A stretch of DNA of 63,232 nucleotides, counting the filler, from Collodictyon triciliatum (taxonomy: Eukaryota), in the NCBI GenBank assembly GCA_043381765.1. It is 15 parts of 15 records of this genome, joined end to end, with 100 filler letters (N's around TTAATTAATTAA, not from the genome) between each part and the next. Parts side by side here need not be neighbours in the genome. Positions count along the whole stretch, not along the records: positions 26,968 to 31,004 come from JBHJMP010006570.1; 14 more parts are not named here. One strand, given 5' to 3'. The position numbers and the translations under genes were made by a program. Below are positions 18,693-59,791 of the stretch, piece by piece (positions within the stretch are counted from its first letter, which is position 1; every line of letters begins with the position of its first letter). Below the pieces are notes generated by a model, which made no database searches, was not told the origin of the DNA, and saw only the letters and a list, made by a program, of their open reading frames with translations.

Positions 18693-21600
18693 GAAGGTGA
18701 ATTACCAACTAACCCACAATACGGAGAATTTTTCAATCCAAATCATGGCCATACCCTCGATGATGGGAAAACGCCTTCTTACTCGATATTTGTGCTACGA
18801 TGCGCACCCATTAAGAAATCTAGCGCCACGACGTATGAGTTCTTCCACAAATCGCTCTACGAATTCTTTGCTGCTGAATACATCAAAGATGAAATCAATA
18901 GTTCCGATGTGGAAAATAAAGATTCTGTCCAACCATCAACAGAGGCTCAAAATGTTGCATATTCTTCTGAAGCCGCGAATTCTAATAATGGAAAATCTGA
19001 TGCAAAATCATCAAGCACCGTGCTCTCCCATGTTGTTAATTCTGTGATGAAATCAAAAGTGAAGACAAAAGTTCTGGATAAAAAGCTTGAGCCTGCCATT
19101 CTGCTCAACCTGAGTGAAAAAGTGAACAAAGACAAAGCCTTCAAAGACAATCTGTTTTCAATCATCGAGCAGTCTAAGACAGATGCAACCAAAGCGCAAG
19201 CTGCGTCGAATGCCATCACAATTCTGAATTATGCTGATATTTCATTCAGCGGCATGGATTTCAGAGGGATTCAAATTCCAGATGCCGACATGTCACAGTC
19301 TGTTGCTGATGGTGCTAACTTCACTAATGCCAACTTGGAGGGTGTTTTGTTCTATAATGCATGTATTTCGAACTGTGTTTTTGATGACGCAATCATGAAA
19401 GGTGTTAATTTTGGTCGCTTGCCTTTGTTTTTGGGACATAGAAGTGATGTCACTGGTGTTTGCAGCATTCAAGGACCGAATGGTGAAAATTGGCTGGCTT
19501 CTGGAAGTTGTAATCCCTATAGTATTGTTGATAAAAGCATACGTATTTGGGATGTAGCCACAGGAAACCAAATCAAAATATTAGAGGGTCATACATATTT
19601 TGTATCGTGTATTTGCAGTATTCAAGGACCGAATGGTGAAAATTGGTTGGCTTCTGGAAGTTTTGATAAAACAATACTTATTCTTGATGTAGCCACAGGA
19701 AACCAAATCAAAACATTAGGAGGACATACAAATGGTGTCAATAGTGTTTGCAGTATTCAAGGACCGAATGGTGAAAGGTGGTTGGCCTCTGGAAGTGCTG
19801 ATATCTTTGGAGGTGGTGATAAAACAATACGCATTTGGGATATAGTCACAGGAAACCAAATCAAAACGTTAGAAGGACACACAGATAGTGTGACCAGTGT
19901 TTGCAATATTCAAGGGCCGAATGGTGAAAATTGGCTGGCATCTGGAAGCTATGATAATACAATATGCCTTTGGGATGTAGCCACAGCAAACCAAATCAAA
20001 TCGTTAGAAGGTCATACAGAACGTGTCAATAGTGTTTGCAGTATTCAAGGACCGAATGGTGAAACCTGGTTGGCTTCTGGAAGTAGTGATAATACAATAC
20101 GTATTTGGGATGTAGCCACAGGATACCAAATCAAAACATTAGAAGGACATACAAGCGACATTCGAGGTGTTTGCAGTATTCAAGGACCTAGTGGTAAACC
20201 CCGGTTGGCTTCTGGAAGTAGTGATGAAACAATACGTATCTGGGATGTAGCTACTGGCAACCAAATCAAAACATTAGAAGGTCATACAAGTTTTGTCAAC
20301 AGTGTTTGCAGTATTCAAGGACTGAATGGTGAAAATTGGTTGGCTTCTGGAAGTTATGATAAAACAATACGTATTTGGGATGTAGCCACAGGAAACGAAA
20401 TCAAAACATTAGAAGGTCATACAAGTTTTGTCACTAGTGTTTGCAGTGTTCAAGGACCGAATGGGGAAAATTGGCTGGCTTCTGGAAGTTATGATAATAC
20501 AATACGTATTTGGGATGTAGCCGAAGGAAACCAAATCAAAACATTAGAGGGTCATAAAGAGCCAGTCATGAGTGTTTGCAGTGTTCAAGGACCTAGTGGT
20601 AAACCCCGGTTGGCTTCTGGAAGTAGTGATAAAACAATACGTATTTGGGATGTAGCCACAGGAAACCAAATTAAAATATTAGAAGGACATACAGGTGAAA
20701 TCAATAGTGTTTGCAGTATTCAAGGACCGAATGGTGAAAAGTGGCTGGCTTCTGGAAGTGCTGATATAACAATACGTATTTGGGGTGTAGCCACAGGAAA
20801 TCAAATTAAAACATTAGAAGGTCATACAACCGCTGTCACTAGTGTTTGCAGTATTCAAGGACCGAATGGTGAAAATTGGCTGGCTTCTGGAAGTTATGAT
20901 AATACAATACGTATTTGGGATGTAGCCGAAGGAAACCAAATCAAAACATTAGAAGGACATATAAGAGGTGTCATGAGTGTTTGCAGTGTTCAAGGACCGA
21001 ATGGTGAAATATGGTTGGCTTCTGGAAGTGAGGATGGAACAATACATATTTGGGATGAAGCCATAGGAAATGAAATCAAAACATTAGAAGGACATATAAG
21101 AGGTGTCATGAGTGTTTGCAGTGTTCAAGGACCGAATGGTGAAATATGGTTGGCTTCTGGAAGTTGGGATAAGACAATACGTATTTGGGGTGTCGCTACA
21201 GAAAACCAAATACAATGTTCTCAAAAACCAAAAATGACCTACAACGAGAATAGTCGATTCATCATGAAAGATAAACCAGAAAAAATCATCGCAGTATTCA
21301 ATGTAAGAAGTGATAGGATTAACACGATCGATGCAAACAGAATAATGAATGTGAGAACTGTTCGAATTATCGGCCCAAGAACTGTTGAAGCTGTTAATAC
21401 TCGTATAAATAGAGCTGAACTGAGTGCGATGAACAAGAAACTATTCCTGCAAGAAGGTGCTGCTTCCTTTGATACGGACTTTGTTGCTTATTGTGAGCAG
21501 GGTAAGTTCACCAAGTTCCAAGCTCAAATGATGGCTGAGTGTTATGATAATGGATGGGGTGTTGAAAGGGACACCAAGAAAGCAGCTGAATGGTTTGGAA

Positions 21601-22330: not shown

Positions 22331-22730
22331 TATTATTCACTCTTTCAATTTTGTGCGGGATGGTGGCGTCGTTGGCTTTGGTTCGCTAGCCATCGTTTGC
22401 ATGGACGCTACTTGGTGGCCGGGTGGCGGAGAAGTAGTCGGGAATCAGGAGTTGCATCCTGCGGTTTGGCATGTAGCCTTGGTCTTGTGCTTGCATGAGA
22501 AAAACAAGGCGAGGTTTAATCTCTTTCATGGCTTCTTTCCACATGTCTCTTCTCACAGGTTCTGAGTAGTAGAGAACGTGCAGGTGGCGAAGAAAGCTAT
22601 TGAGTAAAGAGATTTGTATGATTTCATCAAGCCTATTATCAGGAATGGGTGGCTGGTTGTTGAGTCTTGCTTTGCGTGAGTATATGCGTGCTATCCACAT
22701 AGTCCATAGCAAATGGCCTCGCGTCACTGC
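22331..22730 (-). mobile_element. 3' end of an L1/Tx1-like non-LTR retrotransposon (ORF2 C-terminus + 3' UTR; family 'B')
   Basis: LLWTMWIARIYSRKAR resembles the WxIWxxRN ORF2 C-terminal motif. It shares >200 bp homology with 50244-50470, and its terminus CACCATCCCGCACAAAATTGAAAGAGTGAATAATA also occurs at 50492 and 61415. Confidence 0.65.
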
Positions 22731-24417
22731 NNNNNNNNNNNNNNNNNNNNNNNNNNNNNNNNNNNNNNNNNNNNTTAATTAATTAANNNNNNNNNNNNNN
22801 NNNNNNNNNNNNNNNNNNNNNNNNNNNNNNTATGTATGTATGTATGTATGTATGTATGTATGTATGTATGTATGTATGTATGTATGTATGTATGTATGTA
22901 TGTATGTATGTATGTATGTATGTATGTATGTATGTATGTGTGTGTATGTTATGTTTTATTGAGTAGTCAGTCACCTTTTTTTTTCTTTTCTTATTTATTT
23001 TTCTCTTGAAGGTGATCAAAATGCAAGCCTCTTCTGATCGAGTATTAAGTCAACAACCAAAAAAAATGAAAGAAAGAAAGAAAAGAAAGAAAGAAAAGGC
23101 ACAAAGTGAGTTCCTGGGAAGCGCCTTTGATACTGTCATTGGCTTGATAGTTTTTCTTGTGCGATGGAAGAGGATCATCGAGTTACTGGCCAGGGCTTCG
23201 GATATACAGAAAGACTCGTCAAGGAAATGACAAGGAGCCCATCGAACAAACGAACAAACTAAATAACAAAAAAATAAAAAAGAAAAAGAGTGCCTTGCAC
23301 TGAAAGTGGGTTTGCTCTGCGCGGCGGGGTGGGAATTGGCGAGCATCTGACGGATGTGGGTGCGAAACCATACCATAAACAGGCAGGCATCTGAATTTGC
23401 TTCCCACTCCGCCCTTTGTCCAAAGGAAGAAATCTAAGACTACTTATGGATAAAGATGGATTCACAGATTTTTAGACACAAATGCACATATTTCTGCACA
23501 GGTCTCACATCTCGATTTGGCCATACCAACTTATTTTTGCATTTTCCCTTTAAATTTTTCGTTTTATCCATATTTTTTTCTTCGACCATTGCGAGCCACG
23601 CCCAGAAGATACGATCGAAGCACGATCAAATATCAGCCTGTCTCGGATCAAACAAAGCGGTGAAAGCCAGCAACCAGAGACGAAGCAGCGTTGAGAAAAC
23701 AAAACAAAACAAAAACTACANNNNNNNNNNNNNNNNNNNNNNNNNNNNNNNNNNNNNNNNNNNNNNNNNNNNNNNNNNNNNNNNNNNNNNNNNNNNNNNN
23801 NNNNNNNNNNNNNNNNNNNNNNNNNNNNNNNNNNNNNNNNNNNNNNNNNNNNNNNNNNNNNNNNNNNNNNNNNNNNNNNNNNNNNNNNNNNNNNNNNNNN
23901 NNNNNNNNNNNNNNNNNNNNNNNNNNNNNNNNNNNNNNNNNNNNNNNNNNNNNNNNNNNNNNNNNNNNNNNNNNNNNNNNNNNNNNNNNNNNNNNNNNNN
24001 NNNNNNNNNNNNNNNNNNNNNNNNNNNNNNNNNNNNNNNNNNNNNNNNNNNNNNNNNNNNNNNNNNNNNNNNNNNNNNNNNNNNNNNNNNNNNNNNNNNN
24101 NNNNNNNNNNNNNNNNNNNNNNNNNNNNNNNNNNNNNNNNNNNNNNNNNNNNNNNNNNNNNNNNNNNNNNNNNNNNNNNNNNNNNNNNNNNNNNNNNNNN
24201 NNNNNNNNNNNNNNNNNNNNNNNNNNNNNNNNNNNNNNNNNNNNNNNNNNNNNNNNNNNNNNNNNNNNNNNNNNNNNNNNNNNNNNNNNNNNNNNNNNNN
24301 NNNNNNNNNNNNNNNNNNNNNNNNNNNNNNNNNNNNNNNNNNNNNNNNNNNNNNNNNNNNNNNNNNNNNNNNNNNNNNNNNNNNNNNNNNNNNNNNNNNN
24401 NNNNNNNNNNNNNNNNN

Positions 24418-26736: not shown

Positions 26737-27054
26737 GTAAGTAGACAATTTTATTACATCCCATTTAACAAGGATGTTGATGACTCTATCAAAAAAATAA
26801 AAGAAAAAAATAAAAGAAAAAAATAAAAGAAAAAAATAAAAGAAAAAAATAAAAGAAAAAAATAAAANNNNNNNNNNNNNNNNNNNNNNNNNNNNNNNNN
26901 NNNNNNNNNNNTTAATTAATTAANNNNNNNNNNNNNNNNNNNNNNNNNNNNNNNNNNNNNNNNNNNNTTTTTTTTTTTTTTTATTCCTAGGGGGTTCTTG
27001 TTTTTTTTTTTTTTTTTTTTTTTATTATTCTAGTCCACCTGCTTCTAAAAGACT

Positions 27055-27505
27055 ATGCCACATATTATGATTCGGCGCCTTATAGTTTCCTCCAAGTGTC
27101 ACCAACACGACGAGGACTGTCTTTTTTGCAAGATCGTTCAAAAGAAGATCCCGTCGCTGAACCTTCTTGAGACAGACTTGACATACTCCTTCCTCGATAT
27201 AAATCCTCTTTCTAACGGCCATGTACTCGTCATACCCAAGCAGCATGGAGTTAAATGTAAGTGGTTGAGTTTTTAGAGGCATTTGAAGACCCACAGTAGA
27301 TTTTATGTATCACGATACCTGGAATTGTGGCAAAAAACAAAAACAAAAACACGTAAAAGCATGAAAGCATACAAACAATGATTGAAACAGCCCTTGAACG
27401 GGTACATACATTATTTCACACGAATGAGCTATCATCGTCACATTATCCATATTATCATTATTTTAAAAGAAAAATACTAGATTCAGTTGTTATACCTGTT
27501 CACCT

Positions 27506-27628: not shown

Positions 27629-28198
27629 GAGTTCTTAATTCTATATCTGACAATTAATAAAACTATACATAAAACCAGTACATGAAATCGATGACGAATA
27701 TCTTGCGGACATGCTGCCAGTAGCTAAGAAGATTATAAGTGCCCTCGGCCCCGAGAACTACAATATCCTGCAAAATAACGGGCGCTTGGCCCATCAACAA
27801 GTCATGCATGTCCATTTTCATATCATCCCGAAGCCAGATTCCACCAATGTAACTATGATGACAATAATACATATCTTTGCATAATTTTGGGCAGTGGGTC
27901 TCAAACGTTAATAGCTGACTCCTACAACACAATATTTCTTACTTGGCTTTTTTCTATTTCGATTTCCATCGCAAACCTGAAGCATACCAACAAACGATAA
28001 TGATGGAAAATCATGATCTGAAGAGAGAAAAAAATGCCTAAAATATATGCCAAAATAGACGGTTCTTATCACCCATGCCTTTTTTTTCCCTTTCTTTATG
28101 TAACATAGGGACTCGGGGTCGTTTGGCAACCGAAGAGCGCAAGTGTAGATTCGCTGAAGGCCAGACAAAAGGAAATCTTGGACAAGCTTTCGGCCTGA
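27055..28198 (+). CDS. HINT1: HIT-family nucleotide hydrolase (HINT/Hnt1-like), 3 exons visible
   Basis: DCLFCKIVQKKIPS...FLDINPLSNGHVLVIPKQH|...YNILQNNGRLAHQQVMHVHFHIIPKP|GLGVVWQPK...LSA*, with the histidine triad HVHFH. The start codon is uncertain. Confidence 0.9.
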
Positions 28199-28669
28199 GC
28201 TTTCGCCACGGACAGTTCCACATATGTGATAATATTTCCATGAATATGACTACTATTGGAACATATTTGCTTGAAAAACAAACCCCCAAAATGAAGAAAA
28301 ATCAAAAATTCAAAAATGACAAACAACCTCTTGCCTTGGCCTCAGACAGAACCCGCCCTATAAACCTGCCACCAAACATGCATTTCAAAGAAGCATACTA
28401 TCCACACTTGCGGCGGCAATCATGTTGTTTGGGGTCGATATGTTGACTTTCAGTCGCAATTGCTATGCGGCCGTCCTTTCGAACTCGCCAAATCAGCTCT
28501 CAGCGTTTTGTCTCAAATCACTTATATAAAAAAAAAAAACAACTTCGTGTGACTGCTTGCCACAATGCGCATATTTTGAGGGTCTCGGTGGATGCTTAAT
28601 TTTACATCAATTGATTTTGTGCAGTTATTTTTTATTTATTAAATTGACTGATTGACTAAAGTTTTATTA

Positions 28670-30612
28670 CAATTGAAAACTCGGCAGTTTTCTAAAGGAA
28701 AAAGTAAAGCAAAGACTTTCAGATAAAGAAAAGAAAAAGGTCTTGAGTCTGATTATCTAAAGTATGTAAAACCAGACTATCGAAATGTGAAAACATCTCT
28801 GAAGTCGATTGTAAAGAATGCGAATGACTATTACAAAAAACGATACTGTTTTATTGTGTCATAATTTGGTTACAGACGCTTATCTGTTTGCAAGATGTTA
28901 CATATTGAAATCATAACAACTCCCAACAACCGATGAAATGGGTTTTTTGTACGCTTTAAAGACAGTTCAGAGTAGTTTCACAAGGTAGACTCGCAAGTTT
29001 TTTTTTTAAAAAAACCAGAAAAGGGCTACGACATGATTACTTTTTATCTCTATGATTTTCGATTCCTTTTGTCCCGAGAAGAACGCTTTCCGTTGGTTAG
29101 ACTGTCTCACGTATTACTGTACTTGGCGAAGCAAATGTTAACAGCTTATCATAATAACATTAAGGAGCATTTTGTAAAGAGGTTTCTGCGCTTTATAAAT
29201 CAAACAGTTCCTAAAGATGAGAATATTACGGAAGCTATTAAAAAGGCAGAGTTACGAAAGTTAAAAAAGCCATCTTCAAGAACCTCGAAATACCGAAAGA
29301 ATATAAAGATAAGACTAAAATACATCTGCATCATATCATTCCCAGCAAAGTTGTAAAAGGTATCGAATATGACGTCAAAGTCAATCCAGATAAGTACATA
29401 CCATGTCTGATTTACATGAATCGCATTTTTGGGGACATTGGAACCAAACTGTTTCAACCAATCTCTACAAGAACTACCAATATACCATATCGTATTACTC
29501 TAGATATTGTATGTTTGATAGATTTATTAGTATTATCTGAAAAAGAATCACTACTGAAGAATATATCAGGATGCAAAGAGACCTATGGGATGATTATTTT
29601 GAAATGAAGAAGAGGGTCTTTCATCAAACAGACTACAATTTCAAATACATAATACAAACAGACGGCTTGGCGGTGTCATTATTATTTGAAAAGAAAGGTA
29701 TTTCAAATTCAAAAATCAAAAATAATCAAAAAAAACCCGAGATTATGTTTATATAGATGAACTTTCCGAAGAGCAATTATCTTCATTAGCGACAAAAAAA
29801 TAGTTAGAGTGGACGCATGCAAGTTTGATTTGGTTTATATGGTGGATGAGACAAGTAAGAAATTACGTTACACGGCTCACCAAAGAAGACATGATAGCAA
29901 ATCTCTTAAAAATCACAAAATACCCTTGCGCGAAAAAGAAAGTAGAAAAGTACAACGCTTCAGGGATATGTATGGCAACGGGTTTACAAAGTGCTGTTTC
30001 TTTTGGTCTCATGACTTTTGAAGAGAATCAGTGGTTTGAGACATTAAGAGTATCTTTAATCGATTTAGAGACAAAACTGAGTAAACATAATTCATGCGCG
30101 GTCGATTATGAGAAATTTCGGAAACATTTATCTATGAAATCAAGATACTAGATATAATTATCCAGATTTTATAAACAAGTAACTTTTCGAAAGAATGCGA
30201 GCATGGAGACAGTATGTTAATGCAAAAAGAAGTGAAGAATTCTTTATGGACCGAATCGAAAAGACATTTGGCAAGGATGTTGTACTGGCGTATGGATGCT
30301 GGAGCAGAAAATCTCCGATGAACCATTCTATGCTAACAATCGGAAGAGGATTACGAAAAATACTATCCAAGCGTTTTGAAACAGTTAGTGTAGATGAATT
30401 TAGGACGTCCAAGAAGTGTTTCAACTGCGAAAAAGAACTGGAATATATGACACTGAATGGAAATTCAAAAAAAAGTGCATAGATGTCTCATATGTAAAGA
30501 ATGCCATCGCTCAGAAAGCAAACAAAGTATATTCTTGACAAGGGACTTTAACAGCGCTAAAAATATACTCAAAAAAGTTCTTTTAAACCTTCAAAATATT
30601 CGTACACATCTC
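28670..30612 (+). pseudogene. Fanzor1 (eukaryotic TnpB-like RNA-guided RuvC nuclease), near full length, frameshifted
   Basis: Intronless. Pieces in order: RNVKTSLKSIVKN, LYLAKQMLTAYHNNIKEHF, YDVKVNPDKYIPCLIYMN, LFQPISTRTTNIPYRITLD, IQTDGLAVSLLF, RuvC-I IVRVDACKFDLVYM, VLAYGCWS, RuvC-II VSVDEFRTSKKCFNC, zinc finger CKEC, RuvC-III TRDFNSAKNI. Confidence 0.88.
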
Positions 30613-30622
30613 TAAAAAATAC

Positions 30623-30741
30623 AGGCTGTTGGGGCTTTCCAGGCAGCCTTCACCACTACACGACCTTTGTGAAAAAAGTGGTGAGACTTTGGGTATTAGC
30701 ACACCAGGTTTACCAATTGAAAGGTATTAATACTCCTTCTA
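30623..30741 (+). ncRNA. Candidate Fanzor omegaRNA scaffold / element right end (copy 1)
   Basis: Non-coding and immediately after the RuvC-III end. Consecutive hairpins: AGGCTG..CAGCCT, TCACCACT..AGTGGTGA (inner CACGA/TTGTG) and GACTTTGG..CCAGGTT. Conserved in the second copy at 58869-58987. Confidence 0.6.
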
Positions 30742-30934
30742 TTAAAGATAAATAAATCAAGAATGGAAACTGCCAACGCGAATCCTTATCTCCAGCTTAT
30801 ACTACACGGCGCGCATTAGATATTCTTTCGTCGTGTCACCTTTTGAGTAATCTTTGATCGCTTCACTAGAAGCCACATTTCACTTCTAGAATGCCAGGAT
30901 GTATCGTTGACTCTTATTATTATTGTTATTATTA

Positions 30935-31004
<70 letters not shown>

Positions 31005-46690: not shown

Positions 46691-46900
46691 AAGTACACAN
46701 NNNNNNNNNNNNNNNNNNNNNNNNNNNNNNNNNNNNNNNNNNNNNNNNNNNNNNNNNNNNNNNNNNNNNNNNNNNNNNNNNNNNNNNNNNNNNNNNNNNN
46801 NNNNNNNNNNNNNNNNNNNNNNNNNNNNNNTTTTTTTTTAATATTTTATCATCATTAACATCACCATCATCAATATTATTCACATAAAACAAACTGACAG

Positions 46901-50243: not shown

Positions 50244-50523
50244 ACGCGTTCTCTGTTACTCCGACCCTGTGAGAAGAGACATGTGGAAAGAAGCTGAGAA
50301 AGAGATTCAATCTCCTTACCTCTCTCATGCAAGCACAAGGCCCAGGCTACAGGCCAAAGCGCATGATGCAACTCCTGGTTATCGGCTACTTCTCCGCCAC
50401 CCGTCCACCGAGTAGAGTCCATGCAAACGATGGCTAGTGAACCAAGTCCAAACCCCATCATTACGCCCAAATAGAAGTGGTAATTATAAAACATCCTGCA
50501 CAAAATTGAAAGGAAGAATAAAA
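50244..50523 (+). mobile_element. 5'-truncated family B retrotransposon 3' fragment plus a 32-bp terminal piece with 17-bp TSD
   Basis: 50244-50470 aligns with the reverse complement of 22370-22580. AAGTGGTAATTATAAAA (50475-50491 and 50524-50540) flanks CATCCTGCACAAAATTGAAAGGAAGAATAAAA. Confidence 0.75.
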
Positions 50524-58630: not shown

Positions 58631-58868
58631 TGGCGCGAAAGACGACAATTACAATAAAGCTTCGCTGTGCCACTCATCACACAATACAGAGAAACGAAGA
58701 AGAAAACTGATTGTAAAAGTTTGTGTAAGCCAATTTTAGATTTGCTGCATTGCTTTTGGAACATGAAATATCACGCCTGTTGATAGTTTCACCTATCCTC
58801 CAGACAATCTTTTTTTTTTTTTTTTTTTTTATTTCCTGGATTTAAATGATTATCCAGTTATTCTAATA

Positions 58869-58987
58869 CTAGAAGGGGTATATCAATCGAAAGATTAGTA
58901 AACCTGATGCGCTGTATCCAAGGTCTCACCACTTTTTTCACAAAGATTGTGTAGTGGTGAAGGCTGCCAGGAAAGACCCAACAGCCT
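58869..58987 (-). ncRNA. Candidate Fanzor omegaRNA scaffold / element right end (copy 2)
   Basis: Minus strand AGGCTGTTGGGTCTTTCCTGGCAGCCTTCACCACTACACAATCTTTGTGAAAAAAGTGGTGAGACCTTGGATACAGCGCATCAGGTTTACTAAT, homologous to 30623-30717 with the stems retained. Confidence 0.6.
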
Positions 58988-59136
58988 ATTACTTTAAAGA
59001 GGAAGGTGTATGCATTTTTTTGAAGGATAGAAAGAACTTTATGAGGTGTATTTTTAGCGCTGCTAAAGTCCCTTATCAAGAATACACTTTGTTTACTTTC
59101 TGAGCGAATGTATTCTTTACATATGAGACATCTATG

Positions 59137-59226
<90 letters not shown>

Positions 59227-59791
59227 TATTTCCTTTCAGTTTCGTATATTCCAGTTCTTTTTCGCAGTTACAGCACATCTTGGAGATTCAAAATTCATCT
59301 ACACTAATTGTTTCAAAACGTTTGGATAATATATTTCGTAATCCTCTTCCGATTGTTGGCATAGAACGGTTCATCTGAGATTTTCTGCTCCAGTCTCCAT
59401 ACGCCAGTACAATATCCTTGCCAAATGTCTTTTCGATTCGGTCCATAAACAACTATTCACTTCTTTTTGTATTAACACACAGTCTCCATATCATCTTTCA
59501 AAAAGTTATTCGTTCATAAAATCTGGATAATTCTATCTGGTATCTTGATTTCATAGGAACATATTTCCGAATTTTTTCATAATCGACCGTGCATGAGTTA
59601 TGTTAACTCAGTTCTGTCTCTTAATCGATTAAAGATACTCTTGATGTCTCAAACTGCTGATTCTCTTCAAAAGTCCTGAGACCTAAAGAAATAGCACTTT
59701 GAAAATCTGTTGCCATGCATATCCCTTAAGCATTGTACTTTTCTTTTGTCTCACGCAAGAGTATTTTGTGATTTTTAAGAGATTTGCTATC
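58988..59791 (-). pseudogene. Second, 5'-truncated copy of the same Fanzor1 family
   Basis: The reverse complement aligns with 29893-30622 (e.g. ATGGACCGAATCGAAAAGACATTTGGCAAGGAT identical). It encodes FMDRIEKTFGKDIVLAYGDWSRKSQMNRSMPTIGRGLR and SKMCCNCEKELEY. A poly(T) at 59139-59225 replaces the short A-run of copy 1. Confidence 0.9.

Follow-up and report, generated by a model that had tools for sequence, protein, structure and literature searches.

The DNA segment that follows a broken nuclease gene at positions 30623-30717 (+ strand) in Collodictyon triciliatum, together with its twin on the opposite strand, probably makes up the first two-thirds of an omegaRNA scaffold. This scaffold would belong to a transposon family that carries Fanzor1 and that is present in two decayed copies in the window, i.e., the whole stretch of 63,232 nucleotides analysed here. 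The two leading hairpins of this segment, designated H1 and H2, agree in location, strand, and shape with the leading helices of a structured, covarying 3' module that is found in intact metagenomic relatives. In these relatives, the end of the module coincides exactly with the right terminal inverted repeat, and conservation is lost abruptly at this point. The first-pass annotation of this locus had proposed that the tail of the element is an omegaRNA scaffold, that it is non-coding, and that it ends shortly after position 30717; the first part of this proposal is borne out for H1 and H2, both by a match to a structure model (R3) and by covariation in the relatives' module, whereas the tail is probably more than a non-coding stretch, and an end at 30717 could not be upheld.

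The window is AT-rich, contains many microsatellites and long homopolymers, and is eukaryotic in look. Comparison of the window with itself by BLAST identified only two copies of the element, in two pieces, namely 29893-30474 versus 59791-59218 (87.6% identity) and 30467-30717 versus 59147-58894 (84.7% identity); overall, the repeat pair thus comprises 29893-30717 on the + strand and 59791-58894 on the - strand. A second dispersed repeat pair, which is inverted, was observed at 22350-22578 and 50247-50471 (84% identical), and a tandem array with a period of ~135 nt, the copies of which are 74-83% alike, occupies 19434-21211. Pairs of 44-N runs with 12 bases between them recur approximately every 4138 bases throughout the window (e.g., 4040-4139, 8178-8277, and 14454-14553), and larger N blocks are located at 23721-24417 and 46700-46830; these runs and blocks look like masking or scaffolding rather than biology. 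Two open pieces that lie shortly before copy 1 (27049-27276 and 27651-27884, + strand) contain histidine-triad-like motifs, and we take them to be, probably, exons of a HIT/HINT-type gene.

The genes in both copies are Fanzor1 relatives. A 99-residue piece encoded by 30183-30482 matched the Parasitella Fanzor1 (9cf0) with an E-value of 1.3e-8, as well as other solved Fanzor1 structures at E 0.019 (Spizellomyces) and E 0.071 (Guillardia), and this piece had 945 relatives at E<=0.001 in a large protein library. P0005, an intact relative of 634 residues, could be aligned with SpuFz1 over residues 14-607 (E 9e-37). Matches to the Cas12f1-like TNB domain in Pfam were sub-threshold only, and word-based protein searches yielded no match for either the 30183-30482 piece (among longer proteins) or the tail-spanning frame of copy 2 (P0155). 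Another Fanzor1-like metagenomic protein, P0004, carries the source name "6-pyruvoyl-tetrahydropterin synthase" and looks mis-annotated.

With regard to the state of these genes, the window family consists of two copies that are readable as sequence, both of which are pseudogenes. In tblastn searches with P0005, residues 110-599 of this protein mapped to copy 1 (28727-30615, + strand) in pieces that switch among three frames, and copy 1 is thus a frameshifted Fanzor1 pseudogene, with several frameshifts and a premature stop at 30613-30615; its N-terminal piece (28727-28864) resembles, by eye, the start of P0005. Copy 2 (58894-59791, - strand), to which P0005 residues 412-617 mapped, is a 5'-truncated remnant. 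Its zinc-finger region contains an 86-nt homopolymer (59140-59225; A on the gene's strand) at a site where copy 1 has eight A; this homopolymer is either a microsatellite expansion or an assembly artefact. An intact nuclease gene beside the RNA, as would be expected of an active system, is thus absent for both copies in the window. In both copies, the tail is located 3' of the RuvC-III motif in a Fanzor1-like frame and on the same strand as the gene, which is the position expected of an omegaRNA.

The tail shared by the two copies (30623-30717, +; 58987-58894, -), which was the starting point of the first-pass annotation, is real and is 89% identical between them. It had been described as a series of consecutive stems; H1 and H2 are strong and fold as described, whereas the third hairpin (H3) is weak and appears in the 95-nt fold only. 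H1 (30623-30649, +) is an 11-bp hairpin with one mismatch in copy 1, H2 (30650-30684, +) is a two-tier hairpin with an 8-bp outer stem, a 5-bp inner stem, and an A-rich 3' internal loop, and H3 (30688-30713, +) consists of a 5-bp hairpin (30688-30692 with 30704-30708) that is followed by UUUAC. Identity between the copies is 87-90% in the ORF parts and 70% in the linker at 30560-30622, as compared to 93% in H1, 94% in H2, and 81% in H3 plus UUUAC (30685-30717); H1 and H2 thus form an island of conservation (93-94%) behind the 70% linker.

As modelled, H1 and H2 are unusually stable: the z-score of the 62-nt H1-H2 core is -3.05 for copy 1 and -4.83 for copy 2, with 0 of 200 shuffles being as stable in either case, while the 146-nt context folds at z -1.45 and -1.89 only. 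Predicted pairs are standard in 28 of 29 cases in copy 1 and in 29 of 29 cases in the copy 2 tail (H1, H2, and H3; 58894-58987, -). The two tails differ at 11 positions, of which 4 are located in stems (58 paired bases) and 7 outside of them (37 unpaired bases); in three of the four stem changes, a standard pair takes the place of another standard pair, and the fourth sets a mismatch in copy 1 against a G-U in copy 2, with the two stem changes in H3 both keeping the pairing. This contrast between stems and loops is weak and, coming from two copies, suggestive only, and the window family, with only two copies, contains no double compensatory change. Rfam contained nothing relevant for 28500-31000, and a 20-nt pattern derived from H1/H2 had 0 matches in viral_contigs and 0 in genome_contigs.

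From the 443 relatives that were confirmed in a metagenome scan, the best 80 were retained; all were 40-55% identical to the window piece, and none of the best 80 was a member of the window's own family. BLAST detected no sequence likeness between the tails of these relatives and the window tails. A recognisable RuvC-III motif was present in 74 of the best 80 relatives, and a common 3' end anchor was located within 450 nt in 66 of these 74 loci (4 of the 8 misses were cut by contig ends). Across an alignment of the 66 anchored relatives, column identity is ~0.9 up to the anchor and ~0.4 directly after it. For a structure-aware alignment, model R2 was built from three close relatives and ten relatives were then realigned to it; in this ten-relative alignment, 92% of cells pair in the standard way, as compared to 38-45% when the partners are slid, and both sides change in 29 of 47 pairs, among them the complete first helix (11 pairs); none of 500 shuffles attained these values. 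While the alignment was fitted to the structure, which favours pairing, the covariation margin is large even so.

The position of the relatives' module within the transposon was apparent from its 3' end. The inverse of the module's last 14 nt was found upstream, with <=2 mismatches, in 11 of the 21 loci examined, and in the eight loci inspected further this match was part of a terminal inverted repeat of 29-31 nt, which constitutes the last nucleotides of the module. In these relatives, a scaffold of the omegaRNA type thus ends at the right end of the element with a sharp drop in conservation, and ~73 nt of this scaffold follow a UUUUAC motif. Since the module is encoded on the gene's strand, overlaps the end of the gene, and stops within the right inverted repeat, with unrelated flank after it, it behaves like published Fanzor1 guide RNAs (PMC10432273 and PMC11423790). 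Intact relatives (L001 174-3503, L004 1260-4575, L078 2186-4568, and others) are 2.4-3.9-kb elements with perfect 29-31-nt terminal inverted repeats, and several of them are located on contigs of 140-255 kb from lake samples. A one-motif search of supplementary files of PMC10432273 did not find the relatives' terminal motif as an element end; a closer published relative of the scaffold may exist.

The link between the relatives and the window is provided by structure models rather than by sequence profiles, as a sequence-only profile of the whole clade scaffold (nhmmer) had no match at the tails. R3, which covers the first three helices in the six nearest relatives only and for which the structure was hand-written from the alignment after the window hairpins had been seen, was run with filters off against both strands of the window (126 kb). 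Its best match was 30618-30699 (+; 21.3 bits, E 0.0066), followed by 58911-58992 (-; 18.5 bits, E 0.028) and by a third match with 11.0 bits (E 1.3), with all E-values being rough due to a short calibration; because the copies are ~93% alike in this region, the first two matches count as one event. In the R3 alignment, H1 falls on helix 1 of the relatives; the two stems of H2, outer and inner, each coincide with their counterpart in the relatives, and the A-rich 3' internal loop is common to both. As the best match of R3 in 126 kb falls on the predicted place and strand, we take H1 and H2, and only these two hairpins, as homologous to the relatives' scaffold under this model.

R3 is the only one of three models that matches the window. 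R2, with its three near-identical relatives and default filters, had no match in the window at E<=1. R1, which does not include the first helix, comprises 26 representatives. These were obtained from the 66 anchored sequences by leaving out L030, L057, and L064, thinning the remaining 63 to 28 below 88% identity, and discarding L040 (wrong anchor) and L073 (long insert). Over the whole window R1 was not significant, with copy 2 ranked 20th (8.1 bits, E 8.6); when run on 301 nt, R1 aligned over its full length with copy 2 (58832-58968, E 0.041), and on copy 1 it gave a 3.6-bit partial match on H2 only. The weak R1 alignment of copy 2 is the one result that hints at H3 being the equivalent of the relatives' third hairpin.

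That the tail lies after the ORF holds for copy 1 only, and the view that it is purely non-coding is not supported. In copy 2, a frame that is open from the zinc-finger region reads through the tail to a stop at 58858-58860 (58858-59235, -), and copy 1 retains 64 open codons of this frame, which a 1-nt indel near 30594 has separated from the reading frame upstream. The relatives' ORFs also overlap the module, within which they end (~47 nt before the module end in L001), and their first helix encodes a conserved "RP..F.R" motif. It appears likeliest that the ancestral ORF overlapped the RNA; an overlap between ORF and omegaRNA is known for GtFz1 and ISDra2 TnpB, as described in PMC10432273.

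The open frame in both copies, along with the finding that the tail is no better conserved than the ORF overall (89% versus 87-90%), is also what would be expected if the tail were the C-terminal coding end plus 3' UTR, kept by common descent, and if its hairpins had no role as RNA. We consider this unlikely, as the hairpins are far more stable than shuffles, are found by the relatives' structure model, and have counterparts in the relatives in which the helices covary. Furthermore, among five codon differences identified by eye, three change the residue and two do not, so that no constraint at the protein level is shown, and the C-terminal tails of the relatives are not alignable as protein.

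An RNA scaffold also accounts better for the tail than does a transposon end that acts at the DNA level, with subterminal binding sites for a transposase, even though the tail is positioned near the 3' end of the element and the last ~30 nt of the relatives' module are a terminal inverted repeat. H1 and H2 are located ~60-150 nt inside the end, outside of the repeat, no copy of H1/H2 is present near the 5' side of copy 1, R3 finds the two tails only, and a search for inverted repeats was without significant result; moreover, the covariation in the relatives preserves pairing and not sequence. A DNA-level role is thus very improbable. The best candidate terminal inverted repeat for copy 1 (28621-28640 with 30751-30773; 20/23 with a 3-nt gap) was rejected as being at chance level (62 of 300 shuffles were as good); this candidate would give a 2.15-kb element ending at 30772.

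The first-pass annotation had the two copies diverge after UUUAC(C/U)AAU and placed the boundary between scaffold and guide between 30717 and 30741. Identity between the copies does drop, from 81-94% in the tail to 17% at 30718-30729; however, this stretch aligns better as an inversion, and identity returns to 87% at 30730-30744 (13/15, at the same offset in both copies) before falling to 44% at 30745-30760. The stretch is part of an imperfect palindrome, H4 (30711-30732, +), that is inverted in copy 2 (58881-58900): copy 1 matches the reverse complement of copy 2 at 17/20 positions with one 2-nt gap (score 18), as compared to a score of 13 for the direct alignment. Because the inverted alignment is better than the direct one, the apparently divergent stretch is probably a fourth hairpin, the loop of which was inverted in one lineage.

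Further evidence on this region comes from a related organism, for which four contigs of run X3 extend past 30723. The consensus of their loose ends matches copy 2 at 19/20 positions (0 of 2000 shuffles were as good) and copy 1 at 13/15 positions (8 of 2000 shuffles were as good). A direct local alignment of the two downstream stretches was not significant when taken alone (382 of 2000 shuffles), and the weight of the motif at 30730-30744 thus comes from its equal offset in the two copies and from the X3 consensus, which together suggest that this motif is still element sequence. Because the "divergent" stretch aligns as an inversion and the next 15 nt are common to both copies and to the X3 contigs, a boundary just after UUUAC(C/U)AAU is not supported; judging from these sequence comparisons, the end of the scaffold is probably reached no earlier than about 30744 in copy 1 and 58866 in copy 2.

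A scaffold that ends at UUUAC(C/U)AAU (30717), with the bases after it representing flanking guide DNA, would agree with the initial drop in identity and with published Fanzor1 omegaRNAs, which are short (75-150 nt in all, as given in PMC11423790), such that a scaffold of 95 nt is plausible. We nevertheless regard an end at this position as quite unlikely, given the renewed identity at 30730-30744, the agreement between the X3 consensus and copy 2, the alignment of the intervening stretch as an inversion, and the length of scaffold that follows UUUUAC in the relatives. There is a still slimmer chance that the scaffold ends right after H4 and that the motif at 30730-30744 is a fixed guide and not element sequence; if this were true, the family would occupy, and be directed to, a single repeated target sequence, and its copies would all have an identical guide.

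If, as we prefer, the scaffold continues past 30744, its 3' end may be located at 30745-30772 (+) in copy 1, where contig cover ends and similarity is that of chance: no contig in 4 of 4 runs provided cover past 30748 (to 30860), and similarity between the copies beyond 30745 was at chance level (1458 of 2000 shuffles). In copy 2, the region downstream of the tail (58832-58893, -), which reaches up to a 21-nt homopolymer and was included in the R1 alignment, possibly holds the rest of the scaffold. An nhmmer search with the relatives' last 34 scaffold columns had no match in either downstream stretch, and a match of the relatives' terminal motif that had been noted downstream by eye was therefore dropped. 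As a guess, the scaffold may end near 30770 in copy 1, by analogy with the relatives and the ~73 nt that follow their UUUUAC, and near 58832 in copy 2, where the weak R1 alignment stops. The homopolymer directly after the copy 2 downstream region (58810-58830) consists of A on the gene's strand and comes after an AATAAA-like run; it may represent a tail of the retrocopy type or simply another of the many homopolymers in this genome.

In published Fanzor1 systems, the complex of nuclease and RNA cuts matching sites beside the element's target motif. In the intact ancestor of the window family, the RNA would have shared a few dozen codons with the end of the nuclease gene, would have been made from the 3' end of this gene, and would have been bound by the nuclease; it would have continued through H3, H4, and a further stretch to the right end of the transposon, with the adjacent flank serving as guide, and the resulting complex would presumably have cut matching sites adjoining the target motif of the element. 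Since both nuclease genes are broken, the two RNAs in the window are likely to be relics, except if they are acted on by an intact copy located elsewhere in the genome.

Among characterized systems, SpuFz1 of Spizellomyces punctatus (Spu-1 elements; 8gkh and related structures) is alike in that a Fanzor1 is carried by an element with ~30-nt inverted repeats and in that the guide RNA comes from the 3' inverted-repeat region, on the gene's strand, with the guide provided by the flank (Saito et al. 2023, PMC10432273). Correspondingly, the relatives of the window family have 29-31-nt terminal repeats that form the end of the module, and P0005 aligns with SpuFz1 over nearly its full length. By contrast, the SpuFz1 omegaRNA is 90 nt in all, scaffold plus guide (PMC11423790), whereas the scaffold of the window's clade is longer (~155-200 nt in the relatives) and overlaps the end of the ORF, and the window copies are dead. 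A first stem-loop of seven base pairs is described in PMC11423790 as contacting the RuvC and TNB domains; H1, for comparison, has 11 pairs. GtFz1 of Guillardia theta also has a scaffold with multiple stem-loops (150 nt in all with the guide, PMC11423790), and this scaffold shares 17 C-terminal codons with the nuclease gene (PMC10432273); GtFz1 differs in being a distant protein relative (E 0.071), and the overlap in the window family would be longer, at ~35-50 codons in the frame of copy 2. Finally, the omegaRNA (reRNA) of ISDra2 TnpB, as cited in PMC10432273, is alike in arrangement: it is a guide RNA from the right end, it has sequence in common with the nuclease gene at the 3' end of the latter, and its scaffold stops where the transposon ends; ISDra2 differs in being a prokaryotic, single-strand IS200/IS605 element without terminal inverted repeats.

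The tail is thus very probably the front part of a Fanzor1 guide-RNA scaffold, belonging to a known kind of element that is represented here by dead copies. As nothing in the window suggests activity, the practical value of the window itself is small; the finding does, however, add a decayed eukaryotic Fanzor1 family to the loci with a recognisable guide-RNA module, and it indicates that a structure model from intact metagenomic relatives can pick out relics where sequence profiles fail. For a long Fanzor1 scaffold of this kind, overlapping the end of the gene and finishing in the right inverted repeat, the consensus obtained from the relatives is well supported, and it could help the annotation of guide RNAs in the clade.
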